Assembly (NCBI GenBank): GCA_038231275.1
Contig: JBBRLQ010000033.1
Span: 1 to 64,000, forward strand
DNA: 64,000 nucleotides
Source of the DNA: Polyangiales bacterium
GTDB taxonomy: Bacteria; Myxococcota_A; Polyangia; Polyangiales; Polyangiaceae
Reading direction: 5' to 3'
The stretch's first letter is position 1, and each line of letters opens with the position of its first letter. Under the pieces are notes generated by a model. It worked only from the letters and a program-made list of their open reading frames with translations, had not been told where the DNA came from and searched no databases. The position numbers and the translations under genes are program-made. Positions 1 to 13,997 of this stretch are shown here, piece by piece.

Positions 1-45
1 TAGGCGGTGTGGGCGCGAGACCCCGGGAGCGCGTCACCTCAGGGG

Positions 46-128
46 GTGATCGCGATGCGCCGTTTTGTGCGATCGGCATCCGCCGTTTTGTGTGATCGCG
101 ATGCGCCGTTTTGTCCGATCGGCATCCG
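46..128. repeat. Short tandem repeat, 23-bp period (46-bp higher-order unit)
   Basis: Core CGCCGTTTTGT starts at 58, 81 and 104. GTGATCGCGATGCGCCGTTTTGT(G/C)CGATCGGCATCCG occurs at 46 and 92. Confidence 0.8.
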
Positions 129-211
129 GCGACGCGCGCAGCTTCGGCTGCTCGTTGCTCGCGCCGAGGTAGGCGGTGGTCGCCAACTCGAGCTCACGCG
201 TTGAAGCATGG

Positions 212-472
212 AGTCGCGCGATCGGCCCGCGCGCGCGGGTCCTCACCTACCTTGTGGTTGCAACTCCTAAAATCGACGACGTTTACCTCCTCAGTTCGGA
301 GGGCTAACGAAAATGGTGCCCGACGATCTGATCCGCGATGTGCTCGAAACCATCGTCGACGTCGGCCGCGCCGCCGATTGCCTCGTGGAGCCCGCCAACG
401 GACGGGGCGGTATGTACAACATCAGCGTCGTGCTGGTGCGCGTCGTCGAGGCGCTGCGCCGCGGTGGCCTGA
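212..472 (+). pseudogene. Decayed 3' fragment of a PP2C phosphatase (paralog of 3820-4083)
   Basis: Aligns codon by codon with the PP2C C-terminus (SRAIGPRARVLTYLVVATPKIDDVYLL..LTKMVPDDLIRDVL..). A 1-nt deletion near 300 disrupts the SDG motif, and GGADN has become GGMYN. Confidence 0.85.
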
Positions 473-557
473 GGGTCGCCAGCTTGCCAAGGGAGAAGCC
501 TCGAGGCTACGATTGAGGGCGGTGTGGACTGTGCGAAGAGCCGTTGCGATTGGCTCC

Positions 558-1907
558 ATGCTCGCCGCGCACCTAGTGGTCTTGGCAGTCCCTGCCCCCG
601 CCCAGGCGCAGCGTAGGCCGCCGAAGACGGCCCCCGCCCCCAAGAAGCCCGCCAAGAAAGACGTCGCGCTCGAGGAGGCGCGAAAGCGAGAGGAAGAGCG
701 GCGTAAGGAAGAGGAAGCCCAGCGTGCCGCAGCCCAGCGACAACTCACGGACCAGCGCGCCGAGGAGGCGCGGAAGATAGCCAAAGCGGCAGAGGCGGCA
801 GCGCTTGTCCGCCAGAGCCGTACCTCGTTCGACGAAGGACGCCGCTACCTCAACGAATCGAAGCGGGAGCGCCGGCGCGCGGACGACGAGATTGCCGCCG
901 AGCGGGTCGCGGCTTCCCGCGGGTTCTTGGCGCTCCCCATCCTCTTCTACAGCCCCGAAACCAATCTAGGCCTCGGCGCATTCGGGCTTTATTACTTTCA
1001 CTTGGGCGAACCCGACAAGACACGAACGTCCAACATTCGCTCGAGCTTCATCTACACGACGAAGAAGCAAGCCTTGTTCGACATCGGGCCAACGCTTTGG
1101 TTTGCCGAAAATCGACTGAACGTCAACGCGCTCTTTACGTACGACTACTATCCAAATTTTTTTGCAGGAATCGGAAATCGAACACCGTCGACGCTCATTG
1201 AGAACTACGCGGAGCGATTTCCATCGATTTCCACGCAAGTCCAATACCGTCTCGTGAGCAGCCTGTACGCCGGGATACGGTACCGGTACGAAAGGCGCGC
1301 GATCTTGGACACGGAGCCCGGTCGAGCCCTCGACTCCGGCACCATCCTCGGTGACCACGGCGGCGTTTTGTCGGGGCTCGGCGTGACCGTGTCCTTCGAC
1401 TCGAGAGACAACATCGACGCGCCCGCCGTGGGGACCTACGCCTACCTCGGCGTTCGGCAGAACTTCGCCGCCATCGGCAGCGATTACCGGTTTACCGAAG
1501 TCGACGTGGACCTGCGCAAATACTTCGGGATCGGCGACAACGTCCTAGCGTTCCAAATTCTCGGCGGAACGAACGCCGGCAACACGCCCTTCTACGCGCT
1601 CTCCACGATCGGGGGCGGGTCGAACCTTCGAGGGATCACGTTCGGCCGCTACCGCGATACGCACCTCATCGAGGGGCAAGCCGAATTTCGATTTCCAATC
1701 TTCGGACGGTGGAGTGGAGCCGCGTTTGGCGGAGCTGGGGAGGTGATGCACTCGGTCCTGGACTTCAAACCCGGCGGACTCCACCCGGCGGGGGGGGTTG
1801 GTCTGCGCTTCGCGATCGTCCCGAGCGAGCGACTCCGCATCCGGCTCGACTTCGCGTACGCGGAGGCCGGACTCGCGTACTACCTCAATATCGGGGAGGC
1901 GTTCTAG
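558..1907 (+). CDS. Omp85/BamA-TamA (surface antigen D15-like) outer-membrane beta-barrel with charged helical N-terminal region
   Basis: Signal-like segment ending AQA, a K/E/R-rich helical stretch, then LPILFYSPET, amphipathic strands, LRG..GRYRD loop motif and C-terminal YLNIGEAF. Start uncertain (GTG 522 or ATG 558). Confidence 0.75.
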   Translation: MLAAHLVVLAVPAPAQAQRRPPKTAPAPKKPAKKDVALEEARKREEERRKEEEAQRAAAQRQLTDQRAEEARKIAKAAEAAALVRQSRTSFDEGRRYLNESKRERRRADDEIAAERVAASRGFLALPILFYSPETNLGLGAFGLYYFHLGEPDKTRTSNIRSSFIYTTKKQALFDIGPTLWFAENRLNVNALFTYDYYPNFFAGIGNRTPSTLIENYAERFPSISTQVQYRLVSSLYAGIRYRYERRAILDTEPGRALDSGTILGDHGGVLSGLGVTVSFDSRDNIDAPAVGTYAYLGVRQNFAAIGSDYRFTEVDVDLRKYFGIGDNVLAFQILGGTNAGNTPFYALSTIGGGSNLRGITFGRYRDTHLIEGQAEFRFPIFGRWSGAAFGGAGEVMHSVLDFKPGGLHPAGGVGLRFAIVPSERLRIRLDFAYAEAGLAYYLNIGEAF

Positions 1908-2049
1908 CAACGTAAGCGTCGGGCGGAGGTCATAGACCGCCGCCACCGCGTATCCGGCCTGCTCGCGTCGCGTTCGGACGAGTAGGCGCGCGACGTCAAC
2001 CGGACCGTGGCCTGGCAGACCGCGTTCGGGGGCTTACTTCGCCCGACGG

Positions 2050-2790
2050 GCGACGAAGGCTCTTCGTCGAACGACACTACCCGGGGTGTCCACCGCAGGG
2101 TTCGGGCTAAGCGGGTAGTGGATGAACCACGCGAGAGCGGCCGGCGCGTACGGGCGGTGCGCGAGGAGCCAGCGGCGATTGCCCTCCACCACGGCGGACT
2201 CGGTCTGCAGGAGCGTAGGTCACGCGGACGGCAGCTTCGCCGTCAGCATCTCGAACAGCACCATCCCGCACGCGAACAGGTCGCTTCGTGAAGTGACCTT
2301 TCCGCCGAGACGCGCCTCAGGCGCCATGTAGCTGCGAGTGCCCACCATCACGCCGGGGCGCGTGAGGCGCGAGACCGGCCGCGACGTTCCGCGAGTGCGC
2401 CGCGTCGAGCGCGCTCAGAACCTGGAGCATCAAATCGAGCGCGTCACCGAGCGGGAGGGGGCCGTTGTCCCGGATCGCCAGCGATAGGTCTCGCCGAACG
2501 GGCGCTCCATGAGCAAGTAAGGACCGACACCTTCGAGCCACCCAATGTCGAGGAGCGAGCGAATGTGAGGGTGACGCAGCGACGCGACGAGCAGGGCCTC
2601 ACGCTCTCGGCGGCTCACCGACTCCGCAGCCTCGTGGGCGGGTCATGACCTTGATGGCGACCTGGCCGCCCGTCCGCTCGCCTTCGGCGCCAAAGCCGAA
2701 GCCTTTCCCGCCCCGCCGGACGAGCTCGGTCATGCGTTAGCGATCGTCGACCACGCGGCCGAGGAGCGGGTGGAGCAAGCCACGGGCCGG
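2050..2790 (-). pseudogene. Degraded Ser/Thr protein kinase
   Basis: Fragments across frames: GRVVDDR*(stop)..RRGGKG..QVAIKVM, REA..LRHPHI..YLLME, QVLSALDAAHSRNV, MVGTRSYMAPE..SDLFACGMVLFEMLT. Stops and frameshifts present; the HRD-DFG segment is missing. Boundaries approximate. Confidence 0.8.
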
Positions 2791-3015
2791 ATGTGGTTTC
2801 GTGTGGATAACCCGCGCGGGGGCCAATGTGTGGCGCGCCGGTCGACAGGTGCAAGCGCCAATCGCCAGAACCGGATCCGCATGCGATGTGGCGGCCCACG
2901 CACCGAGTCGACGACGGCACCACTCCCGCCGCATGGACTCCGCGCGTCTAGCCGCGGATCGCCAGTGGAATGACTGTTGCTCTTGGCCAAGCATGGCTCT
3001 CGGGTGGACTGCACG

Positions 3016-4083
3016 ATGACAGCGGAGCGAATTGCGCTCTGCGGGATCGTCCTGTTCGTCACGGGGCTCGTCCTTCTCGCGTGGACCCTGCTGCGCTCGA
3101 GGACGCGGCCGGGCACCGCGCAAAGGGTGCCCGCGAGCCTGCCTGGCGCCGTACGCGTCGAGCTGGGCGCGCATGTCGACCCATCCGACAGCCTTCCCAT
3201 CATCCACTTCGACGAGGGGGAAGAGGACGGCGACGAACCGACGCGCCACTCGGACTTCGACGACGCCGACGAGAGCTGTCCGGCGGTCCCCATCGCCTTC
3301 GACCACTCCGCGCTCGACGAAGAGGAGACGTCGCTTCAGCCGCATTTTATCTTGGCGGCCGTTGGTCGTACCGACCGAGGACGCCATCGAAAGCAGAACG
3401 AGGACACCGTGCTCGTACGCTCGACCGACGGCCTGTGCGTGGTCGCCGACGGAATGGGCGGGCACAAGGGCGGCGGGATCGCGAGCGGGCTCGCAGTCGA
3501 GACCATCGCGAAAGCGCTCGAGGAGGGGACTTTCGAGGGCAAGCGCCACCCCACGCTCCCGTCGCGCGGGAGCGAGGTCGTGCGCGCGATCCAGGCCGCG
3601 AGCTCGCGCATTCGCGCGGTGGCGAAGGAGAGGCCCGAGCTCTCGCAGATGGGAACCACAGTCGTCGCGGCGCGCTTCTCTCCGGACAAGCGGAGGGTGT
3701 ACATCGGCCACGTCGGCGACAGCCGCTGTTACCGTTTTCGCAGCAACGAGCTGGTTCTCATGACGAAGGACCACACGATGGCGTGCTTCGGCGTCGTCGG
3801 TGAAGGCTCGGGCCTACTCAGTCGGGCGGTGGGCCCGCAGGCACGCGTCCTCACGGATCTCGTGGTCGCCACGCCGGAGATCGGCGACGTCTACCTCCTG
3901 TGCTCGGACGGGCTCACGAAGATGGTGCCCGACGATCTCATCCGCGATGTCCTGGACACGATCCTCGACGTCGGCCGGGCGGCGGACTGTCTCGTGGAGC
4001 TCGCCAATGGCCGCGGCGGCGCGGACAACATCAGCGTGGTGCTCGTTCGTGTCGTCGGGGCCGCCGCGCGCGCCGTGGCCTGA
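3016..4083 (+). CDS. PP2C-family Ser/Thr phosphatase with N-terminal membrane anchor
   Basis: GRHRKQNED, VADGMGGH, MGTT, HVGDSR, LLCSDGL and GGADN motifs. Hydrophobic N-terminus followed by an acidic linker. Confidence 0.92.
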   Translation: MTAERIALCGIVLFVTGLVLLAWTLLRSRTRPGTAQRVPASLPGAVRVELGAHVDPSDSLPIIHFDEGEEDGDEPTRHSDFDDADESCPAVPIAFDHSALDEEETSLQPHFILAAVGRTDRGRHRKQNEDTVLVRSTDGLCVVADGMGGHKGGGIASGLAVETIAKALEEGTFEGKRHPTLPSRGSEVVRAIQAASSRIRAVAKERPELSQMGTTVVAARFSPDKRRVYIGHVGDSRCYRFRSNELVLMTKDHTMACFGVVGEGSGLLSRAVGPQARVLTDLVVATPEIGDVYLLCSDGLTKMVPDDLIRDVLDTILDVGRAADCLVELANGRGGADNISVVLVRVVGAAARAVA

Positions 4084-4200
4084 CGGGCTCCGGCCGCCAT
4101 ACACGCGCCACCTTGTACGCAGCAAATCGCGCGCGCGCATGAGTGTGGTGCCCGATGGTCGTGACCGCGCGGTAGATTGAATCGTGGGCCGACCTCGCTC

Positions 4201-5739
4201 ATGAGCCAACGACGCACCTCACTGCCTCCGCCGCGCGCCACATCGCTGTTCGCGCGCACGGTCTACCGTCAGCTGAAGCAGGCGGGCTACGGGAAGGCCG
4301 AAATAGTCGCCTTCGTTAGCGAGCTCATGGGTGAGCTCACGGACGAGAGCTCGGGAGGCGCGCTCTCGGGTGTCACCGACGTCGAGACTTCCCTCCCGAA
4401 CTCCGAGTCATTTCTAGATGTCATCGAGTTCGAGCTTCGGCGGGCTCGCAGCATCCCGAGCCGCGACGTCACGTTGATCTGTCTCGACGTAGATCCGCCG
4501 GAGTGGGCCACGGACGACGTGGCACAGGCACTCCACGCGCGCGTCGCGAGCCTGCTCCGACGCGGCGTGAGGCCGACCGACGCGATCGCACGCCTCGCGG
4601 CGTCGCGTTACGCGATCATGCTACCGGGCTCCACCAAGGATTCCGCGCGCGTCGTCGCCGCGCGCGTCGTTCGTTCGATCCTCGAGCCTCGACGAAGCAA
4701 CGACGCGCCTCCGGAAGGCACTCGCATCGCGATGCGCGCCGCGAGCCTCGTCGACGGCGACACGGACAGCGCCTCCGCGCTCCTCGCGCGGTGCCTCGGT
4801 GATGTTCCACGCGCCGTCGAGCCCACGGGGCGCGCGTCCTCCACGATTCCGCCACCCCTCTCTCGACCTGAGCGACCCGGTGCGATGGTCCTCGCTTTGG
4901 GCGGAGGCGCCGCGCGTGCCGCCGCACACATCGGGGTCCTTCGTGCGCTCGAGGCGAACGGCGTTGGGGTCGCCGGCGTCGCGGGAACGAGCGCGGGTGC
5001 CATCGTCGGGGCGATGGCGCTTCGCGGCATGAGCCACGCGGACATCTTGGAGCGCTTCGTCGCCTTCACACGCTCCGACACCTACCGCCAGATGCGGCGT
5101 CGTTACATCGAGTATCGGCGCTCGGCGAAGGTCCCTCGGTCGACGGTCGAATACTTCCGGAACAGCGGCATCGCGTTCCTCTCCACCGACCGGCTGGCGG
5201 CGTTCGACGACGATCTCTTCGGTCAATTCATCGAATTTTTCGTCGGCCCCGATCGCGACATCGGCACGCTGGATCGCCCGTTCGCCGTCGCCGCGACCGA
5301 TCTCGTCACGGGCCGCGCCGTCCGGATCGCGCACGGACCCCTGCACTTCGCGTTGAAAGCGAGCTGTGCGCTTCCAGGGCTGTTCCGCCCCCAAGTCGAG
5401 GCGGATCGGTTGCTGGTCGACGGGTCCACCGTCGCCGAGGTCCCCGTTCAGGTCGCCGTACAACTCGGCGTCGCCGCGCCGATCCTGGCCGTACACTTGA
5501 TGCGCCCGGAAAAGGACGTCACGACGTTCGAGTCCAGCTCCGAGGTGGTCATGCGTTGGGGAACGATCGTGCACCGCGAGCTCGTCCGCGAGCAGCTGCG
5601 TCACGCCCATCACCTCGTCACCGCGTGCGTAGATCAAATCGGTTGGCTCGACTTTCGACGCGCCATCGAGACGGCGGGCATCGGCGAGAGGGCGGCACAC
5701 GCGCACTTTGCCGGAATGAGCGCCTGCACGAAGACGTAG
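4201..5739 (+). CDS. Degenerate GGDEF domain fused to patatin-like phospholipase
   Basis: TDVETSLPN..ELRRAR..LICLDVD..RPTDAIARLAASRY is GGDEF-like with the A-site lost. Patatin motifs LGGGAAR, GTSAG and LVDGS follow. Confidence 0.85.
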   Translation: MSQRRTSLPPPRATSLFARTVYRQLKQAGYGKAEIVAFVSELMGELTDESSGGALSGVTDVETSLPNSESFLDVIEFELRRARSIPSRDVTLICLDVDPPEWATDDVAQALHARVASLLRRGVRPTDAIARLAASRYAIMLPGSTKDSARVVAARVVRSILEPRRSNDAPPEGTRIAMRAASLVDGDTDSASALLARCLGDVPRAVEPTGRASSTIPPPLSRPERPGAMVLALGGGAARAAAHIGVLRALEANGVGVAGVAGTSAGAIVGAMALRGMSHADILERFVAFTRSDTYRQMRRRYIEYRRSAKVPRSTVEYFRNSGIAFLSTDRLAAFDDDLFGQFIEFFVGPDRDIGTLDRPFAVAATDLVTGRAVRIAHGPLHFALKASCALPGLFRPQVEADRLLVDGSTVAEVPVQVAVQLGVAAPILAVHLMRPEKDVTTFESSSEVVMRWGTIVHRELVREQLRHAHHLVTACVDQIGWLDFRRAIETAGIGERAAHAHFAGMSACTKT

Positions 5740-5743
5740 CGCA

Positions 5744-6793
5744 TCACCCGAAGATCGCAGCGGCTACCCGGTCCGCCGTCACCTTCGCGAGCAAGATCCC
5801 ATTGCGGTGATGCCCCGTCGCCAGAAACAGCCCGGGCAACGGAGAGGCCCCGACGAGCCATGCCGTCTCGTCCCCCGCGAACGGGCGAAAGCTGCTCCAC
5901 ATCCCCGTGAGCGCGGCGCCCGCTAGCGAAGGCGCGACGCGCAGCGCGCCGTCGAGGATCGCGCGCACTCCGCCTGCGGTGACGCCGTGCGCGTAGCCGG
6001 CGTTCTCCATCGTGGAGCCGCAGACGATCCGCCCGTCACCGCGCGGGACGACGTAGCCGGCGGTCGTCTTCAGCATCGCGCGTAGCCGCGGAGGCCGCTC
6101 GTCGAGCTCGACGATCTGTCCGCGCACGGGCACCACGCGCGGCAAGGACGCGGGCACGCCGGGGACGAGCGACGACCAGCTCCCCGCCGCGAGGACGGTG
6201 GCGTCGGCCTCGAGCGTCTCCCCCTCGAGGACGACGCCGCGGCAACGGTCTGCGGATCCCGCGAGGCGCTGCACGACCGCGCCGCTGCGGACCACGACCC
6301 GCGAGCGCGCGATGGCCGCGACGAGCGCCCTCAGAAGAGCGCGCGGATCGACCTGCGCCTCGTCCGGGAAATACGCGGCGCGCACGATCGGGGCGAGCTC
6401 CGGCTCGATCGCGCGCGCTTCCGCGTCGCTCAGCGCCTCCGCGCGGAGGCCGGCCGCCGTCTGCCACGCCACCGTGCGTTCCACGTCGCGTGCTTCGTCT
6501 TCCGTGAACGCCACGCGCAGCATTCCAGACACGCGGTGTCCGACGTCGAGCCCCGTGCGCTCACGCAGATCGGCGGCCCACCCGGCGTACTCCGCGCGCG
6601 CGCGCACGAACGTGTCGAGCATCGGACCGGCCTCGCGGCTCTCGACCTGCGCGCCGAGGATCCCGGCGGCGGCGCTCGACGCCTCCGCGCCAGGGACGCT
6701 GCGCTCGAGGAGCACGACGTCGGCGCCGCGCGACGAGAGAGCGAGCGCCGTCGCGCAGCCCATGACCCCACCGCCGATGATCGCGACCCGCAT
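5744..6793 (-). CDS. thiO: Glycine oxidase (ThiO/DAO family FAD oxidoreductase)
   Basis: MRVAIIGGGVMG, ASSAAAGIL, PVRGQ, YVVPRGDG and ATGHHRNGILLA. The real gene is the C-terminal part of the 978-aa ORF. Confidence 0.85.
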   Translation of the reverse strand: MRVAIIGGGVMGCATALALSSRGADVVLLERSVPGAEASSAAAGILGAQVESREAGPMLDTFVRARAEYAGWAADLRERTGLDVGHRVSGMLRVAFTEDEARDVERTVAWQTAAGLRAEALSDAEARAIEPELAPIVRAAYFPDEAQVDPRALLRALVAAIARSRVVVRSGAVVQRLAGSADRCRGVVLEGETLEADATVLAAGSWSSLVPGVPASLPRVVPVRGQIVELDERPPRLRAMLKTTAGYVVPRGDGRIVCGSTMENAGYAHGVTAGGVRAILDGALRVAPSLAGAALTGMWSSFRPFAGDETAWLVGASPLPGLFLATGHHRNGILLAKVTADRVAAAIFG

Positions 6794-6865
6794 GGCGCCG
6801 TCAGCGTAGCGCGGATTTGCCCGGTTTCCGTTGACGTCGGCCCGAGAGGGGCGTGGCATGGCGCG

Positions 6866-8569
6866 ATGCGAAGCGCTTCGATCGCCCTGATTTCGTGCGT
6901 CCTCGGCCTCCTCGTCACCGCCATCCCCCGAAGCGCAGCCGCGTTCTGCGGCTTCTACGTGAGCGGCGCCGACACCAAACTCTACAACAACGCCACGATG
7001 GTCGTCATGATGCGCGACGGCCAGCGGACCGTGTTGTCGATGCAAAACAACTACCAGGGGCCCCCCGAAAAATTCGCGATGGTGGTGCCGGTGCCGGTCG
7101 TCCTCCAGAAGGAGAACGTGAAGACGCTCGACCGCGCGATCTTCGATCGCGTCGATCTGCTCGCAGCGCCGCGCCTCGTCGAATACTGGGAGCAGGATCC
7201 GTGCGGCCCAGATTTCATTTCGGCCACGCGGGGCGGCGGCCCCGGCGGTCCGGTGACGCGCAAGCCTAGCCCCGCGCCCTCGAAGGCGGACCTCGGCGTC
7301 ACGATCGAAGCGCAGTTCACCGTTGGCGAGTACGAGGTCGTGATCCTCTCCGCAAAGGATGCCTCGGGCCTCGACAGCTGGCTGAAGCAAGAGGGCTACA
7401 AAATCCCCGAAGGCAGCGAGCCGTACCTGCGGCCGTACGTGCAGAGCGGGATGAAGTTCTTCGTCGCGAAGGTCGACATCAAGAAGGTGAAGTTCGAGGG
7501 CGGCATGGCCACGCTCTCGCCGCTGCGCTTCCACTACGACACGGAAAAGTTCAACCTGCCGATCCGCCTCGGCCTGGTGAACGCGAAGGGCGCGCAGGAT
7601 CTCATCGTTCACGTCCTCGCGAAGGGGCAGAGGTACGAGGTCGCGAACTACGCCAACGTGACCATCCCCACCAACTTCGACCTGTCCGAGAACGCGCGCG
7701 GGCGGTTCTCGACGTTCTACGCGGCGCTCTACGATCGGACGCTCGAGAAGACCCCGAAGGCCGTCGTCACCGAGTACGCGTGGGACGCGTCGACGTGCGA
7801 TCCGTGCCCCACCCCTGCCCTCACGTACAACGATCTCGCGACGCTCGGCGCCGATGTGCTGCCCGGCGCGCCTGCGCCGGTGGGCACCGCGACAGGGCCG
7901 ATCGCGCCGCGGGCGCCGTGGTTCTCGCCCAGTGGGTTCGTGCTCACGCGCCTCCACGCGCGGTACACGAAGGAGGCGCTCGGAGAGGATCTCGTCTTCA
8001 AGCAGGCGGGGCCGATCACCGGCGGACGTGAAGTGCGCGTGAAGGACAACGAGCTGGAGCACGGCTCGACGCCTGCCTCGATCAACAATTTCCAGGGTCG
8101 CTATGCGATGCGGCACCCGTGGACGGGCCCCATCGCCTGCGAGAACCCCAAGCGCGGCAGGTGGGGAGGACCGACGACCGACGGTCCTGGCGACTCGCGG
8201 CCGAAGGCCGCCACGAACCTCGCGTTCGCGCCGCGCGGTGGGGCGCCGCTCACGGCGTTCCTCGCGTCGGCGGTCCCCGAGCTCGGCGCGAAGCCCGCGC
8301 CGTTCGTCGCGCTGCCGCCCGATCCTGCGCCGCTGGACGCGAGCGTCGCGGTCGACGCGGCGAGCGCCGTGGCCATCGACGCAGCCCCGCCTGCAGCGCC
8401 CGCGTCCGCCGCGCCGCCGGCCGCGCCTGCGAAGAGCAGCGGGTGCTCGGCCAGCCCGTCCACGTCGTTCTCCCCGTTCGACGCGTGGGGGGCAGTCGCG
8501 CTGGCGATCCCCCTCGCGGTGAGCCGTACCCGGCGGAAGCAGCGGCGTAGCCGACCTGCTAACCTCTAG
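6866..8569 (+). CDS. DUF2330-like secreted protein with MYXO-CTERM-like tail (copy 1)
   Basis: Signal peptide, FCGFYVSGAD, FAMVVPVP, APRLVEYWEQDPC, VTEYAW..CDPC, LTRLHARY. C-terminal GC motif, hydrophobic segment and basic tail. Confidence 0.85.
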   Translation: MRSASIALISCVLGLLVTAIPRSAAAFCGFYVSGADTKLYNNATMVVMMRDGQRTVLSMQNNYQGPPEKFAMVVPVPVVLQKENVKTLDRAIFDRVDLLAAPRLVEYWEQDPCGPDFISATRGGGPGGPVTRKPSPAPSKADLGVTIEAQFTVGEYEVVILSAKDASGLDSWLKQEGYKIPEGSEPYLRPYVQSGMKFFVAKVDIKKVKFEGGMATLSPLRFHYDTEKFNLPIRLGLVNAKGAQDLIVHVLAKGQRYEVANYANVTIPTNFDLSENARGRFSTFYAALYDRTLEKTPKAVVTEYAWDASTCDPCPTPALTYNDLATLGADVLPGAPAPVGTATGPIAPRAPWFSPSGFVLTRLHARYTKEALGEDLVFKQAGPITGGREVRVKDNELEHGSTPASINNFQGRYAMRHPWTGPIACENPKRGRWGGPTTDGPGDSRPKAATNLAFAPRGGAPLTAFLASAVPELGAKPAPFVALPPDPAPLDASVAVDAASAVAIDAAPPAAPASAAPPAAPAKSSGCSASPSTSFSPFDAWGAVALAIPLAVSRTRRKQRRSRPANL

Positions 8570-8574
8570 TGACG

Positions 8575-9147
8575 ATGTCCCTCCCTGCTCCGCTTCATCA
8601 CTATTCCTACGCGGAGTACCTCGCACTAGAGGAGCACAGCCGAGCGCGTCACGAGTTCGTCGGGGGCGAAATCTACGCAATGGCGGGCGGCACGCCAGGC
8701 CACGCCGGGCTCGCCGCCACCTTGCTTCGCCTCCTCGGCAACCAGCTGCCGGCGGGATGCCGCGCGTACACTTCGGATCTCCGCGTTCGCGTCGCGGCGA
8801 GCGACGTCACGACGTACCCGGATGGGACGGTGATCTGCGGAAAGATCGTCCGCGCGCCTGAGGACCCTCTCGCGGTGACCAACCCCGTCCTCCTCGTCGA
8901 GGTCACGAGCACATCGACGGAGACGTATGATTGCGGCGCAAAGCTGGAGCAGTACAAGTTGCTGCCATCCGTGCGCGAAGTGCTCATCGCATCGCATCGC
9001 ACTCCGCAGCTCACGCTCCACCGGAGGGCGGCGGACGGCAGTTGGACCGCCGCCGAAGCGGGCCCCGGCGGCTCCGTGGCGCTCGAGAGCCTTGGAGGAC
9101 GGCTTGCCGTGGACGACGTCTACCGCGACGGCCTCGACGACGCCTGA
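8575..9147 (+). CDS. Uma2 (DUF820) family PD-(D/E)XK-like protein
   Basis: YAEYLALE..RHEFVGGEIYAMAGGTPGH, YPD, NPVLLVEVTS.ST. Confidence 0.9.
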   Translation: MSLPAPLHHYSYAEYLALEEHSRARHEFVGGEIYAMAGGTPGHAGLAATLLRLLGNQLPAGCRAYTSDLRVRVAASDVTTYPDGTVICGKIVRAPEDPLAVTNPVLLVEVTSTSTETYDCGAKLEQYKLLPSVREVLIASHRTPQLTLHRRAADGSWTAAEAGPGGSVALESLGGRLAVDDVYRDGLDDA

Positions 9148-9245
9148 GACTGACGTTGCGCGCAGGAAGCGCACCGCCTGCACACCGCGCGAGCGCGCTG
9201 CGCAATAGACGCAGCCGGGGGCAGCGCATCCCGCGCACTTCGGCG

Positions 9246-9261
9246 CGGCACGAGGCCTGCA
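9246..9261 (+). promoter_or_regulatory. Putative sigma54 promoter
   Basis: CGGCACGAGGCCTGCA gives GG-N10-GC, close to the TGGCACG-N4-TTGC consensus, 15 nt before ATG 9277. Confidence 0.6.
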
Positions 9262-9276
9262 AAACCTCGTCGCACC

Positions 9277-9999
9277 ATGAAATGCCTCCAATGCGGCGGC
9301 GGCCTCGAATATGTGCAGAATGCACAGTTCTGCCGCTGCTCCCACTGCTGCGCCCTCTTCAAAAACGACAACCGCCACCTCTCGCCGATCGGTCCGCCCG
9401 ATCCCGACGGAAGCGCCGCCTACGCCGCGCAGCTCGGGTTCGCGCCTCGCAAGGCCAATTACACCGTCGTCGATCTCGGCGGCGTGAACCTCAAGATCAA
9501 CTCCGGCAAGATGGAGCGGGACCTGAAGAACAAGGTCTCCTCCATGATCTGGGGGTGGGTCATCGGCGCCGTCATCCTCGGCCTCATCGCCGTCATTTTC
9601 GTCGGCGTCGGCATTTGGGTGTACGCGCAGTCGAAGAACACCGGCGCGACCGCGAGCGGCAGCATGGCGGCACCCAAGGCCGTCTCGTGGGACGGCACCT
9701 CACCGTTCTCGTGCGGCGGCATCGACGTCGTGAAGCTCGAGAAGGTCAAGGCTACTGTCGCGGGCACCGCGATCACCGCGGGCGGCAACTGCCAGCTCAC
9801 GCTCGTGAACGTCGACGTGACCGCGCCGCTCCCCATCGACGCGTCGGGCAACGCGAAGGTCGTCGTCACCGGCGGCAGCCTCAAGGGAACCCCGGAAGCG
9901 ATCGTCGCTTCTGCCAACTCCAGCGTCACCGTCTCGGGCACCACCGTGAACGGCAAGACGAAGGCGAGCGGCAACGGGAAGATCCTCGGCGTGAAGTGA
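9277..9999 (+). CDS. Zinc-ribbon / single-TM / beta-solenoid-like membrane protein, function unknown
   Basis: N-terminal CLQC..CRCSHC, a long hydrophobic segment, and a C-terminal G/T/V/A-rich repeated-strand region. Confidence 0.75.
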   Translation: MKCLQCGGGLEYVQNAQFCRCSHCCALFKNDNRHLSPIGPPDPDGSAAYAAQLGFAPRKANYTVVDLGGVNLKINSGKMERDLKNKVSSMIWGWVIGAVILGLIAVIFVGVGIWVYAQSKNTGATASGSMAAPKAVSWDGTSPFSCGGIDVVKLEKVKATVAGTAITAGGNCQLTLVNVDVTAPLPIDASGNAKVVVTGGSLKGTPEAIVASANSSVTVSGTTVNGKTKASGNGKILGVK

Positions 10000-10057
10000 C
10001 GGGTGCGCGCGCACGCGCCGGTTGACGGCCGCGGTCAAAAGGCGGTCCCATACGCCC

Positions 10058-11797
10058 ATGCGAAAATTGCGAACCTTGCTCGGGCGGCGTGGGGCGGTGC
10101 TCGCGTGTGCGATCGCTGCGGGTGTGGCGGTCGCGCCGCGGGCGGCCGACGCGTTTTGCGGCTTCTACGTGAGTGGCGCGGACACGAAGCTGTACAACAA
10201 CGCGACCATGGTGGTGCTGATGCGCGAAGGGCAGCGCACGGTGCTGTCGATGCAGAACAACTACCAGGGGCCGCCGCAGAACTTCGCGATGGTGGTGCCG
10301 GTGCCGACCGTGCTCCAGAAGGAGAACGTGAAAACGCTCGACCGCGGCGTCTTCGATCGCGTCGACACACTCGCCGCGCCGCGCCTCGTCGAGTACTGGG
10401 AAGAGGATCCGTGCGCGCCCGAGCCACCGGCCATGGCGTACGCGGCCGCCGGAGGGAGGCCGCCGCCGTCGCCTGCACCGATGGCGAAGGGCGCCGCGGA
10501 CCTCGGCGTCAAGATCGAGGCGCAGTTCACGGTCGGCGAGTACGAGATCGTCATCCTGTCGGCGAAGGACGCGGCAGGACTCGACACCTGGCTGAAGCAG
10601 GAAAAGTACAAGATCCCCGAAGGCAGCGAACCGTACCTGCGGCCATACGTGCAGGCCGGGATGAAGTTCTTCGTCGCGAAGGTCGACGTCACCAAGGTGA
10701 AGTTCGATGGGAACATGGCGATGCTGTCGCCGCTCCGGTTCCACTACGACACCGAGAAATTCCAGCTGCCGATTCGGCTCGGCCTCGTCAACTCGAACGG
10801 CACGCAGGACCTCATCGTCCACATCCTCGCCAAGGGACAGAGGTACGAGGTCGCCAACTACCCGAACGTGACGGTGCCGACGAACTTCGACGTGTCGGAC
10901 AATGCGAAGGGCAAATTCGCGACGTTCTACGCGTCGCTCTTCGATCGAACGCTCGAGAAGAACCCGAAGAGCGTCGTCACCGAGTACGCGTGGGACGCGT
11001 CGACGTGCGATCCGTGTCCGTCGCCGGCACTGAGCTACAACGAGCTCGCGACGCTCGGGGCCGACGCGCTGCCGAGCGCGGGCGATCAGGGGGGACCTCC
11101 GCCGCCACCGCCTGGGCTGCCGCGACAGCCGATGCCCCTGCCGACCATCCAGCCGAGAGGCGGGGGAAAGCCCATGCCACCGTCGCCGATGCCGTCGCCG
11201 CCGGTGATGCGGCGTCCGTGGTTCTCGCCGAGCGGCTTCGTGCTGACGCGGCTCCACGCGCGGTACGGGAAGGAGTCGCTCGGGGAAGATCTCGTCTTCA
11301 AGGAGGCGCCGCCGATCACCGGGGGGCGCGAGGTGCGCGTGCAAGGCGATCAGCTCGAGCACGGGGCGACGCCCGCCAGCTACAACAACTTCCAGGGGCG
11401 CTACGCGATCCGTCACGCGTGGACAGGTCCCATTGCATGCCAGAGTCCGAAGCGCGGCAAGTGGGGTGGACCGCCGGCCGGCGCGACGGCCGACGACGGA
11501 CGACCGAAGCCTGCGCTGAACCTCGCGTTCGCCCCGCGCGGCGCGCAGCTGGGAACGTTCCTCGCGGCGCCGGTACCGGAGCTCGACGTGAAGCCGACCG
11601 CGGCGGGTGCGGCTCCGGCCGCGGGTGCGATGGACGGCGGGAGCGACGGCGCAACGCCGCCTGCGACGCCGCCGACCGGCTCGCGCGGGTGTGGCGGATG
11701 CGCGGCAGCTCCGAACGACGGGGCGGGCGCGCTCGTGCTCGGCGCCTCTGCGCTCGGCGTGCTCCTCGCGATGCGACGGCGGCGGAGGCGCGAGTAG
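10058..11797 (+). CDS. DUF2330-like secreted protein with MYXO-CTERM-like tail (copy 2)
   Basis: Long blocks nearly identical to the 6866-8569 protein, with a Pro-rich insertion. Ends GCGGC..hydrophobic..RRRRRRE. Confidence 0.85.
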   Translation: MRKLRTLLGRRGAVLACAIAAGVAVAPRAADAFCGFYVSGADTKLYNNATMVVLMREGQRTVLSMQNNYQGPPQNFAMVVPVPTVLQKENVKTLDRGVFDRVDTLAAPRLVEYWEEDPCAPEPPAMAYAAAGGRPPPSPAPMAKGAADLGVKIEAQFTVGEYEIVILSAKDAAGLDTWLKQEKYKIPEGSEPYLRPYVQAGMKFFVAKVDVTKVKFDGNMAMLSPLRFHYDTEKFQLPIRLGLVNSNGTQDLIVHILAKGQRYEVANYPNVTVPTNFDVSDNAKGKFATFYASLFDRTLEKNPKSVVTEYAWDASTCDPCPSPALSYNELATLGADALPSAGDQGGPPPPPPGLPRQPMPLPTIQPRGGGKPMPPSPMPSPPVMRRPWFSPSGFVLTRLHARYGKESLGEDLVFKEAPPITGGREVRVQGDQLEHGATPASYNNFQGRYAIRHAWTGPIACQSPKRGKWGGPPAGATADDGRPKPALNLAFAPRGAQLGTFLAAPVPELDVKPTAAGAAPAAGAMDGGSDGATPPATPPTGSRGCGGCAAAPNDGAGALVLGASALGVLLAMRRRRRRE

Positions 11798-11810
11798 GCG
11801 GTCCTCGGCG

Positions 11811-13997
11811 ATGAACGCGCTGCGCGGCGCGGTCGGGTGGGCGATCGTGACGGTCCTCGCGTCGTGTGCCTCGGGCGCGCACGACGAGGGCACCGCCGCG
11901 CCGCCGCGCCCTTCGCCCGTGCCGGCGGCGATTCTGCCGAGCGGCGAAGGTGATTTCGCTCCGTCCTTCCTGCGCCTCGAGCGCGGGGGGACGAAGGCGG
12001 GGCAGACGCTAGCCGACGTCGAGACCTGCGGCAACTGCCACGCCGACATCGAGGCGCAGTGGCGATCGAGCGCGCACGCCTTCGCCTCGTTCAACGACGC
12101 CGTGTACCGGGCGACCGTAGAGCGCCTTCGCAAGGATCGCGGGAACAAGGCGAGCCGATTCTGCGCGGGGTGCCACGACATTGCGCTCCTCGTCGACGGC
12201 GCGATGGACGCCGAGATCGATCCGAAAGACCGCCGCGCCCACGCCGGCGTCTCCTGTCGCGTCTGCCACGGCGTCGTCGCGACGCGCCCCGACGGCAACG
12301 GGAGCTACACGCTCGACGTCGGCGATTTTCCGCTCCCGAAAGAGGGCGATCCGGACAGCGTTCGCAAGCACAAGGCGCGCGCCGCCGCTGCGCCGCTTCG
12401 AACGGCGTCGCTCTGCGCGAGCTGCCACAAAGCGTTCTTGAGCGAGGGGAGCGGCAACGATCACTTCATGGTCGGCCAGGACGACGCCACGCCGTGGGCG
12501 CGCTCCGCGTACGCCGGAAGCCTCGCCGAGCGCGTCGACGCGAAGGTCGCGCAGAAGGAGTGCCGCACCTGCCACATGCCCCTCGAGGAAGCGAACGATC
12601 CGGCGGCGAAGGAAGGCAAGGTCGCGTCCCACCGCTTCACGGGCGCGCACACATGGCTCGCGCAAATGCGCGGCGATCGCGAGCAGCGGCGGCGCGTCGA
12701 GGCGCAGCTCGCGAGCGCGGTGACGCTCGACGTCGCGGCGGTGGTCCCGGACGGCGGCGCGCGCGTGCTCCCTGCGGAGGACGCCACGCTGACGCCGGGG
12801 GGACGCGCGATCGTCGAGATCGTGGTGCGCAACGTCGGCGCCGGGCATCGCTTTCCGGGCGGCGTGCTCGACGCGCAGGACACGTGGCTCGAGGTGAGCA
12901 TCGAGGACGCGCGCGGCCAGCGGATCGCGGAGGCGGGATCTCGCCACGAAGCGACGGGGAACGATCCGACCGCCCACGTCTTCACCGCGGCGGTCGGCGG
13001 CGCGGACGGCAAGCCGCTCCTCGCCCGAGAGACACACCTCTTCGAGGCCGGCGTCTACGATCACACGATCGCGCCGCGCGACGCCGATGTGGCGCGCTTC
13101 GCCTTCGACGTCCCGCGCGGCGTGCCGAATGGACCGCTGCGCGTGGTGGCGCGCCTTCGTCATCGCACGCGACGACTCGCCCTTCAACGTGTCGCCTGCG
13201 ACGACGCGCGCAGCCCGCGAGGTCGCGCGTTCGGGCAAGAGGGGCTGCGCCACGTCGCCCGTTCGATCGATCCATGCCCGCCGCAGCCGGTCTCCGAGAT
13301 CGCGCGCGCCGAGGCGCTCCTTGGTGTCGGAGCACCGGCGAACGGCGAGCGGCTCGGCGCGGACGACGCGCGCACGTTCCAGCGCGCGTTCGATCACGGC
13401 CTCGCGATGCTGCACGAGGTCGGCGAGCGCCAAGGCGAGGCGCGGCCAAGCCTCGAGCGAGCCCTCATGCACGCGACGAACGATCGCGAGCGCGCGATGG
13501 CGCTGGGTGCGCTCGCGCGCCTTGCCGAGGATCAAGGGCGCACGGACGAGGCCGCGGATCTCGTGGGCAAGGCGAGCGCGTTCGCCCCCGCGCATCCCGC
13601 GCTCGCGCGCCTCCGTGGCGAAACGATGGCGACCGTGTGGCGATGGAGTGACGCCGCGCCATTTCTGCAGGAAGCGTCGGTCGGCGCGCCGAAGGACGAT
13701 GCCGTGTGGGCCCGCCTCGCGGTCCTTTGGGGCGGCGCGGGACGCGAGAGGGACGCGCTCGACGCCGCGCAGCGTGGGCTCCTCCTGCAGCCGCGCGACG
13801 CCGACATGCTGCGCGTTCAGGCGCTCTCGCTCCGCGCGCTCGGCGCCGCGACCGAAGCAACGTCCCGTGCCGACGACGCTTTCCTCGCGCACCGCGTCCC
13901 CGACGTCGCGTCGCGCGTCCGCTCGCGCTGCACGCAAGACGTTCCCGGATGCGCGCTCGAGCGTCTGCCGGTCCACGTCCACGAGATGCGGCGCTGA
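11811..13997 (+). CDS. Pentaheme c-type cytochrome lipoprotein with C-terminal TPR-like helices
   Basis: Lipobox LASC. Five CxxCH motifs (CGNCH, CAGCH, CRVCH, CASCH, CRTCH), GAGHRFPGG motif and Ala-rich helical repeats. Confidence 0.85.
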   Translation: MNALRGAVGWAIVTVLASCASGAHDEGTAAPPRPSPVPAAILPSGEGDFAPSFLRLERGGTKAGQTLADVETCGNCHADIEAQWRSSAHAFASFNDAVYRATVERLRKDRGNKASRFCAGCHDIALLVDGAMDAEIDPKDRRAHAGVSCRVCHGVVATRPDGNGSYTLDVGDFPLPKEGDPDSVRKHKARAAAAPLRTASLCASCHKAFLSEGSGNDHFMVGQDDATPWARSAYAGSLAERVDAKVAQKECRTCHMPLEEANDPAAKEGKVASHRFTGAHTWLAQMRGDREQRRRVEAQLASAVTLDVAAVVPDGGARVLPAEDATLTPGGRAIVEIVVRNVGAGHRFPGGVLDAQDTWLEVSIEDARGQRIAEAGSRHEATGNDPTAHVFTAAVGGADGKPLLARETHLFEAGVYDHTIAPRDADVARFAFDVPRGVPNGPLRVVARLRHRTRRLALQRVACDDARSPRGRAFGQEGLRHVARSIDPCPPQPVSEIARAEALLGVGAPANGERLGADDARTFQRAFDHGLAMLHEVGERQGEARPSLERALMHATNDRERAMALGALARLAEDQGRTDEAADLVGKASAFAPAHPALARLRGETMATVWRWSDAAPFLQEASVGAPKDDAVWARLAVLWGGAGRERDALDAAQRGLLLQPRDADMLRVQALSLRALGAATEATSRADDAFLAHRVPDVASRVRSRCTQDVPGCALERLPVHVHEMRR

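Follow-up and report, generated by a model that had tools for sequence, protein, structure and literature searches.

The gene at positions 4201..5739 (+ strand) of the window, the 64,000-nucleotide stretch of Polyangiales bacterium contig JBBRLQ010000033.1 analysed here, encodes a 512-amino-acid protein composed of a two-helix hairpin, a degenerate GGDEF-fold domain and a patatin-like phospholipase domain. We propose that this protein is a cytoplasmic phospholipase gated by cyclic di-GMP (c-di-GMP), a proposal for and against which we regard the chances as evenly balanced, with ligand binding, coupling, the direction of the switch and the substrate all predicted from the sequence and a structural model. 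The narrower proposition, that it would be the first phospholipase directly under c-di-GMP control, with a dead GGDEF domain reading the messenger through its inhibitory site (I-site) and gating a cytoplasmic patatin, falls slightly short of an even chance. An initial annotation of this DNA had pointed to the same architecture and the same gating. Its observation is confirmed: the motifs it quoted (RPTD, AASRY, GGGAAR, GTSAG and the Asp of LVDGS) and the helical N-terminal stretch are all found where it had placed them. The gating that it proposed agrees with, and is supported by, tests of sequence, structure and comparative data, from which we infer binding and an effect on activity.

The open frame on the + strand extends from a TTG at 4177 to the stop codon at 5737-5739. 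Starting at the TTG would add 8 residues; because homologues begin level with the ATG at 4201 and not with the TTG, this ATG was taken as the start, which leaves the reading frame as first assigned. G+C content around the gene is ~61–75%, and all features of the gene given below lie on the + strand. An AlphaFold2 model built with alignment A1 (described below) has a mean predicted local distance difference test (pLDDT) score of 89.2 and a predicted template modelling (pTM) score of 0.87, indicating that the half formed by the hairpin and the GGDEF-fold domain and the half formed by the patatin are confidently placed relative to each other in the model. Comparison of this model with the PDB using Foldseek returns the GGDEF and patatin folds each with a probability of 1.00. 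The halves are joined by a Pro-rich linker (residues 206–227, 4816..4881), the length and sequence of which vary across the family and in which residues 213–216 have a pLDDT <50. The 512-amino-acid protein is predicted to be soluble. A membrane or secreted protein was considered and rejected: the N terminus is not signal-like, and the 19-residue window of highest hydropathy (residues 416–434) corresponds to a helix and a strand of the lipase core.

A search covering 5.8 billion clustered proteins yielded 74 family-level relatives (P0002–P0075; family level being an E-value of 1e-64 or better), almost all of them from metagenomes and uncultured Myxococcota genomes, after which scores drop to patatins of ~300 amino acids at an E-value of 1e-30. 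Alignment A1 consists of 60 sequences, including the window protein and the genome copy L001; the 14 sequences left out were fragmentary or fell below ~90% in coverage (P0011, P0028, P0032, P0043, P0044, P0062 and P0067–P0074). Alignment A2 consists of the window protein and the genome copies L001–L005 and served as an out-of-sample check. Residue counts below refer to A1 unless otherwise stated. Most of the 74 relatives carry the Joint Genome Institute (JGI) label 'NTE family protein', which reflects the patatin half only. In practice the family is overlooked.

The degenerate GGDEF-fold domain (residues ~58–205, 4372..4815) is recognized by Pfam, by the family profile and by Foldseek. With the single sequence, Pfam PF00990 matches residues 59–162 (profile positions 3–109 of 161) at 25.8 bits, the cut-off being 23.8. 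Because this match is marginal, a family profile was built. The A1 profile matches ~50 distinct GGDEF structures in the PDB, the best of which is 3ign (E-value 2e-12, positions 60–195). Similar results were obtained with the model: Foldseek matches it to the GGDEF structures 3ign, 4urs and 6tts (template modelling score TMt of 0.72, 0.74 and 0.70, respectively), of which 3ign and 6tts are c-di-GMP-bound, and the secondary structure elements in residues 60–205 follow the order α-β-α-β-β-α-β-α. Several weak NCBIfam cyclase models are also matched by the 512-amino-acid protein. Thus, hidden Markov model searches (Pfam and the family profile) and structure prediction (AlphaFold and Foldseek) agree on this domain as they do on the patatin domain, both of which had initially been recognized from motifs. 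In the ESM Atlas, the best matches are GGDEF clusters at 0.82–0.83, which, being below the 0.9 level, count as a lead only; none of them has the hairpin–GGDEF–patatin architecture.

The catalytic motif of this domain is lost, as the initial annotation had noted. Its position is occupied by A-A-S-R-Y (residues 133–137, 4597..4611), which aligns with the GGEEF of 3ign, 7e6g, 6zxm and 3i5c. None of the 60 A1 members has GG(D/E)EF there; the consensus is x-P-x-R-Y (s-p-x-R-Y in the profile), with R136 present in 55 members and Y137 in 57. P-P-E-W-A-T-D-D stands in place of the guanine-binding FKxxND...GHxxGD stretch and leaves a gap of 4 residues when aligned with the same four structures, and G(H/R)xxG(D/A) is retained in all of the host genome's own cyclases. 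To judge from these sequences, the diguanylate-cyclase site is dead across the family. Other conserved positions of the domain are H112 and D60 (59 of 60 members each), E62 and R179 (56 each), C198 (54) and R131 (47).

The I-site, by contrast with the catalytic motif, is kept. Its motif, R124-P-T-D127 (4570..4581), aligns with the RxxD of 3ign; in the HMMER profile alignment, the family R-x-x-D lies on the R-x-x-D of 3ign and s-p-x-R-Y lies on GGEEF five residues downstream, so that the five-residue register proposed from the sequence alone holds. R124 is present in all 60 members, and position 127 is Asp in 50 and Glu in 10. In A2, only nine of the N-terminal 225 residues are invariant, R124 and D127 among them; the mean column identity of the family is 41%. 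These patterns indicate that the I-site is retained under strong constraint. A survey of homologues thus bears out the conservation of the RxxD on which the initial annotation had built; the gene neighbourhood, to which it had also looked, shows no conserved partner. A candidate for a third I-site position, R155 (4663..4665), had been missed. This arginine is present in 60 of 60 members, 18 residues after the F/Y position of the motif, and aligns with a 3ign arginine at the same +18 offset. Its column may correspond to PleD R390 (R402 in PelD), which lies on the helix after the β-hairpin and is the third residue, and the second arginine, of the primary I-site.

The C-terminal half is a patatin-like phospholipase of the RssA/PlpD type (residues 228–512, 4882..5736), identified by Pfam, the family profile and Foldseek. 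Pfam PF01734 (Patatin) matches residues 231–419 almost end to end (profile positions 1–190 of 191; E-value 4.3e-25, 89.5 bits against a cut-off of 27.7). The A1 profile matches PlpD (5fqu) at an E-value of 1e-43 over positions 228–510, and the top Foldseek match is also PlpD (5fya; E-value 1.9e-16, TMt 0.79), with patatin 1oxw at 7.5e-8; the patatin fold runs to residue 511. The NCBIfam RssA model (NF007623) scores 96.3 bits against an equivalog cut-off of 272, making the protein a relative, not a member, of RssA. The motifs required for lipolysis have been kept, in line with the first reading of the sequence. The oxyanion-hole loop G-G-G-A-A-R (residues 234–239, 4900..4917) is conserved at G234 (59/60), G235 (60/60), G236 (58/60) and R239 (59/60). 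In the nucleophile elbow G-T-S-A-G (residues 262–266, 4984..4998), G262 and G266 are found in all 60 members and Ser264 in 56, with 3 Gly and 1 Cys in the others. The catalytic Asp407 and the adjacent Gly408 (5419..5424) are both invariant. The Ser–Asp dyad and the oxyanion loop are complete, and the predicted lipase is, by these residues, intact. The Ser nucleophile is lost in P0036, P0045 and P0059 (Gly) and in P0039 (Cys), all four of which keep R124, D/E127 and R155.

The hairpin module (residues 11–47, 4231..4341) is formed by helices 11–27 and 32–47 in the AlphaFold model. It matches no Pfam or NCBIfam family, and its residues A18, R19, L25 and A28 are kept at at least 90% in the family. 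Foldseek matches in which the GGDEF domain is preceded by a stalk or coiled coil (6ttr, 3i5c, 3bre and 6et7) align over 192–196 columns, compared with ~150 for bare domains; because stalk-bearing structures align over more columns, helix 32–47 probably occupies the place of the dimerizing stalk of active cyclases. A stand-alone, 61-amino-acid open reading frame (ORF) of the hairpin module is also found in the same genome (G000:C7:18555-18740, + strand, equivalent to L085 2971-3156). It belongs to no Pfam or NCBIfam family, matches the family profile at an E-value of 6.4e-9, shares 43% identity with the window protein across 42 residues, and sits 161 nucleotides upstream of a gene for a 713-amino-acid protein with a forkhead-associated (FHA) domain and a T2SSE-type ATPase. 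Twenty small relatives (108–167 amino acids as called) were identified, two of which carry an FHA annotation. The hairpin module may be a portable partner or dimerization element.

The full-length family is narrowly distributed. Of the 80 best loci in a set of 185,579 species-representative genomes, 5 have a match that starts no later than residue 12 and ends no earlier than residue 485, and the other 75 match the lipase half only. The five full-length loci all come from uncultured Myxococcota, the labels being delta proteobacterium (one), Polyangiaceae (one), Myxococcota (two) and Nannocystales (one). Among the 401 genomes of a Myxococcota phylum sample, for each of which three candidates were scored, a full-length match is found only in the host genome and in G310 (counted with L002 as one locus), and the lipase half alone in four more. 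In the host genome, a 9.28-Mb assembly of 164 contigs with 94% completeness, the gene is single-copy. In a scan of metagenome loci, the best 80 loci all match from residue 203 or later, as ordinary patatins do, and no family member is among the matches listed. Three of the genome copies, L003, L004 and L005 (match from 8001 to ~9400 in each), form a divergent sub-clade with 35% identity to the window protein. They keep the RxxD and the catalytic Ser and Asp, but GGGAAR is changed to C-G-G-A-A-(M/W/R) and GTSAG to A-T-S-A-G, and R155, H112 and the R-Y pair are missing. The sub-clade may differ in activity or regulation.

The sensor half was also searched on its own. Using phmmer with residues 1–225 against 1.84 billion representatives, we obtained 1534 matches at an E-value of 1e-3 or better. 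The top 27 consist of 19 proteins of 484–572 amino acids, with the module at the N terminus, and 8 short ones. One of the latter, P0125, is a fragment, because it breaks off inside the patatin Gly loop; another, P0124 (212 amino acids), the contig of which is up to 33 kb long, may truly exist as a stand-alone sensor. The first match outside the family, P0134 (462 amino acids), carries an intact GGEEF domain and, after it, a degenerate GGDEF-like one with an RxxD and S-S-Q-E-I at the motif position; the C-terminal end of this second domain resembles that of the window family. Related dead GGDEF domains therefore occur in other architectures.

We suggest that the protein works as a cytoplasmic, one-polypeptide receptor-enzyme. 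The dead GGDEF domain would sense c-di-GMP via an I-site pocket formed by R124-x-x-D127 and R155, where the ligand would probably bind as an intercalated dimer, as at other I-sites. Binding would then shift the packing of the sensor and hairpin on the lipase, or the pairing of protomers, and thereby switch phospholipid hydrolysis; the pTM of 0.87 fits a direct allosteric coupling of the two halves. Our guess is that c-di-GMP binding would turn the lipase on, a direction favoured on the ground that a phospholipase located in the cytoplasm should by default be inactive. The host genome has 21 GGDEF matches, 18 with GG(D/E)EF and 17 with RxxD/E upstream; with 18 intact domains, c-di-GMP synthesis is well provided for in the host.

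A number of observations weigh against gating by c-di-GMP. Pfam recognizes the GGDEF domain only in part and at a score barely above threshold, and a precomputed PF00990 match exists in only 11 of the 74 relatives. Within the putative binding pocket, D127 gives way to Glu in one-sixth of the A1 members (10/60), and in A2 the R155 column holds Asp, Glu and Asp in L003, L004 and L005, with arginines one to four residues off on the same helix. The invariant arginines could serve interdomain salt bridges rather than a ligand. Lipolysis may not be the sole output, because 4 of the 60 members lack the nucleophilic Ser yet keep the I-site residues. No conserved diguanylate cyclase, phosphodiesterase or other partner lies beside the gene in the window or at the five genome loci. 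Finally, the GGDEF domain of Myxococcus xanthus TmoK neither makes nor binds c-di-GMP (PMC4877007).

TmoK also provides a precedent (PMC4877007) for the main rival account, which we consider rather unlikely, namely that the GGDEF domain is a relic that binds no nucleotide and, with the hairpin, only dimerizes, positions or auto-inhibits the lipase, control of which would come from elsewhere, for example from membrane contact, phosphorylation or a protein partner. The newly acquired invariants H112, R136, Y137, R179 and C198 would then reflect a domain remodelled for a non-catalytic role, and the tight sensor–lipase packing suggested by the pTM of 0.87 is such that conserved arginines could be interface residues. 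The PP2C phosphatase gene upstream in the window would also fit this account, but that neighbour is conserved in none of the five other loci. Moreover, RxxD is dispensable for the GGDEF fold, being absent from 1 of the 18 intact GG(D/E)EF domains of the host genome, and yet R124 and D/E127 survive in 63 of 63 sequences (the 60 of A1 plus L003, L004 and L005) and R155 in 60 of 60.

It is also improbable, and more so than a non-binding scaffold, that the domain senses another ligand (3'3'-cGAMP (cyclic GMP–AMP), pGpG, GTP or (p)ppGpp) at the I-site or at a remodelled active site (A-site) with its Arg-Tyr pair. Some GGDEF enzymes make cGAMP (Hallberg 2016, as cited in PMC9095652). The titles of the corresponding structures name cGAMP and cUMP-AMP as activators of the patatins CapV and CapE, and the near-invariant R136 and Y137 have been gained at the former A-site. 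However, the A-site residues that bind guanine are deleted, which argues against GTP there, and no CD-NTase-like gene is found nearby. At the position that is Ser in the Hypr enzymes, which make cGAMP, 17 of the host's 18 intact GG(D/E)EF domains have Asp and none has Ser or Thr.

An anti-phage or suicide effector, in which the lipase would kill on a cyclic-nucleotide signal as in cyclic-oligonucleotide-based anti-phage signalling systems (CBASS), or on depletion of c-di-GMP by an invader in the manner of a Panoptes-like guard (in Panoptes, an effector can be kept inactive by decoy cyclic nucleotides; PMC12657218), is highly improbable: weak matches to PADLOC CBASS phospholipase models and to an NCBIfam anti-phage phospholipase (E-value 0.003) are set against a patatin half far nearer to PlpD/RssA (E-value 1e-43) than to CapV/CapE (E-value 1e-4 by sequence; TMt 0.50–0.64), against housekeeping-type neighbours that differ at each locus and include no adjacent cyclase, sensor or defence gene, and against a single-copy gene scattered vertically within one phylum.

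The genomic surroundings of the gene are variable. Upstream in the window lie an Omp85-family gene (111-1907, + strand) and the gene for a PP2C-type protein phosphatase (2977-4083, + strand), separated from the hairpin–GGDEF–patatin gene by a gap of 117 nucleotides. A convergent 978-amino-acid ORF (5744-8680, − strand) matches DAO-type oxidoreductases over its last ~350 residues; the rest of this ORF is mostly a high-GC artefact, and a DUF2330 gene (6536-8569, + strand) overlaps that stretch downstream of the gene. Further downstream, an ORF with matches to multihaem cytochrome c (c554/MtrC-like) and to tetratricopeptide repeats (11607-13997, + strand) overlaps long ORFs on the opposite strand. 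A conserved operon was not found: a tblastn search of 11 window neighbours against L001–L005 returned only the gene itself, and an all-against-all ORF comparison revealed no neighbour common to the window and L001–L005. Likewise, no cGAS/DncV-like nucleotidyltransferase (CD-NTase) or cyclase is present among the window neighbours or among the ORFs of at least 230 amino acids within ~4 kb in L001–L005. An Rfam scan of positions 1-12000 gave no riboswitch upstream, only a single chance-level match (E-value 0.95) far from the gene, and neither a sigma-70-like promoter nor an intrinsic terminator was found within 3800-6100. Among the sequencing runs listed as containing the stretch are two DNA runs of a single study and no RNA run.

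In a Pfam scan of 65 flanking ORFs of L001–L005, neighbours differ by locus, apart from a synthase gene common to L004 (a Nannocystales genome) and L005 (a Myxococcota genome). In both, a giant ORF encoding >2500 amino acids with NMO, KS, AT, KR and DH domains lies downstream of the gene on the same strand (L004 9534-17375, + strand; L005 9761-17407, + strand). It resembles a polyunsaturated fatty acid (PUFA) or polyketide synthase, and in L004 it starts 4 nucleotides past the stop codon of the gene. In L002, an acyl-CoA dehydrogenase gene and one for an AMP-binding acyl ligase are found just downstream on the other strand. A link of the gene to lipid metabolism is possible, in one sub-clade only.

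Through its known effectors, c-di-GMP controls transcription, the synthesis of polysaccharides, motility machines, proteolysis and the processing of adhesins. If the protein is indeed a phospholipase gated by c-di-GMP, lipid hydrolysis would join these outputs; a 2025 review of c-di-GMP effectors contains neither the word lipase nor the word phospholipase (PMC12564702). The logic of CBASS, in which a cyclic dinucleotide switches a patatin, would then have arisen independently with a different, modular sensor. In Myxococcota, a single protein would connect the c-di-GMP state, and with it surface life and development, to the remodelling of membrane or storage lipids. The messenger may also govern the release or turnover of special fatty acids, given the PUFA-synthase-like neighbour in one divergent sub-clade.

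No GGDEF–patatin fusion is described in the titles and abstracts searched, a body of literature with few of the subscription journals, in keeping with the initial view that the architecture is uncharacterized; in PMC9095652 and PMC13375341, GGDEF and patatin are mentioned together in connection with CapV and CBASS. The sensor most resembles PelD of Pseudomonas aeruginosa, PopA of Caulobacter and SgmT of M. xanthus, the last from the same phylum, all of which have a GGDEF fold with a dead catalytic site and a kept RxxD. These are precedents for a degenerate GGDEF domain acting as a c-di-GMP receptor via its I-site, as the initial annotation had noted: PopA and PelD bind c-di-GMP via the RxxD with a dissociation constant (Kd) of 0.5–2 μM (PMC12564702), and SgmT is a degenerate GGDEF receptor that does so via the same motif (PMC4877007). 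Their outputs are the Pel polysaccharide machinery (PelD), a ClpXP adaptor (PopA) and a histidine kinase (SgmT), none of them a lipase. Unlike these three, the window family lacks 4 residues in the GHxxGD region and has R-Y in place of E-F and an N-terminal hairpin of its own. TmoK is similar in that a GGDEF-fold domain without cyclase activity is fused to another enzyme, and it provides a null model for the family.

As a patatin, the protein is related in fold to the CBASS effectors CapV and CapE (Foldseek E-values 4e-11 to 1e-8; TMt 0.50–0.56 for CapV, 9kej and others, and 0.56–0.64 for CapE, 9ion and others; ranked after PlpD and ahead of the GGDEF domains), which are switched by a cyclic dinucleotide and, by the titles of their structures, form nucleotide-bound filaments. 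In CapV and CapE, which are not known to have a separate sensor domain, the lipase itself carries the ligand, and the operons include a CD-NTase. In the window protein, by contrast, the presumed sensor is the fused GGDEF-fold domain and there is no adjacent cyclase. The matches to the PADLOC CBASS phospholipase models PDLC00757 (E-value 2e-4) and PDLC00755 (E-value 7e-4) cover only ~60 residues at the N terminus of the lipase and do not place the protein in either.

The closest lipase relatives in both sequence and structure are PlpD and RssA (COG1752), with which the GGGxxR, GxSxG and DG motifs are shared. PlpD forms the passenger of a type Vd secretion protein that also has POTRA and β-barrel domains, and RssA has no sensor domain; the window protein has neither a signal peptide nor a membrane segment. 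NTE/PNPLA6-type patatins carry an N-terminally fused cyclic-mononucleotide-binding domain of the CAP-type fold, not a GGDEF fold. Their logic, a nucleotide-binding regulatory domain N-terminal to a patatin esterase, is alike, whereas the regulatory fold differs. In an uncharacterized and narrowly distributed architecture, the protein brings together the known ideas of a degenerate-GGDEF receptor and of a patatin switched by a cyclic dinucleotide.

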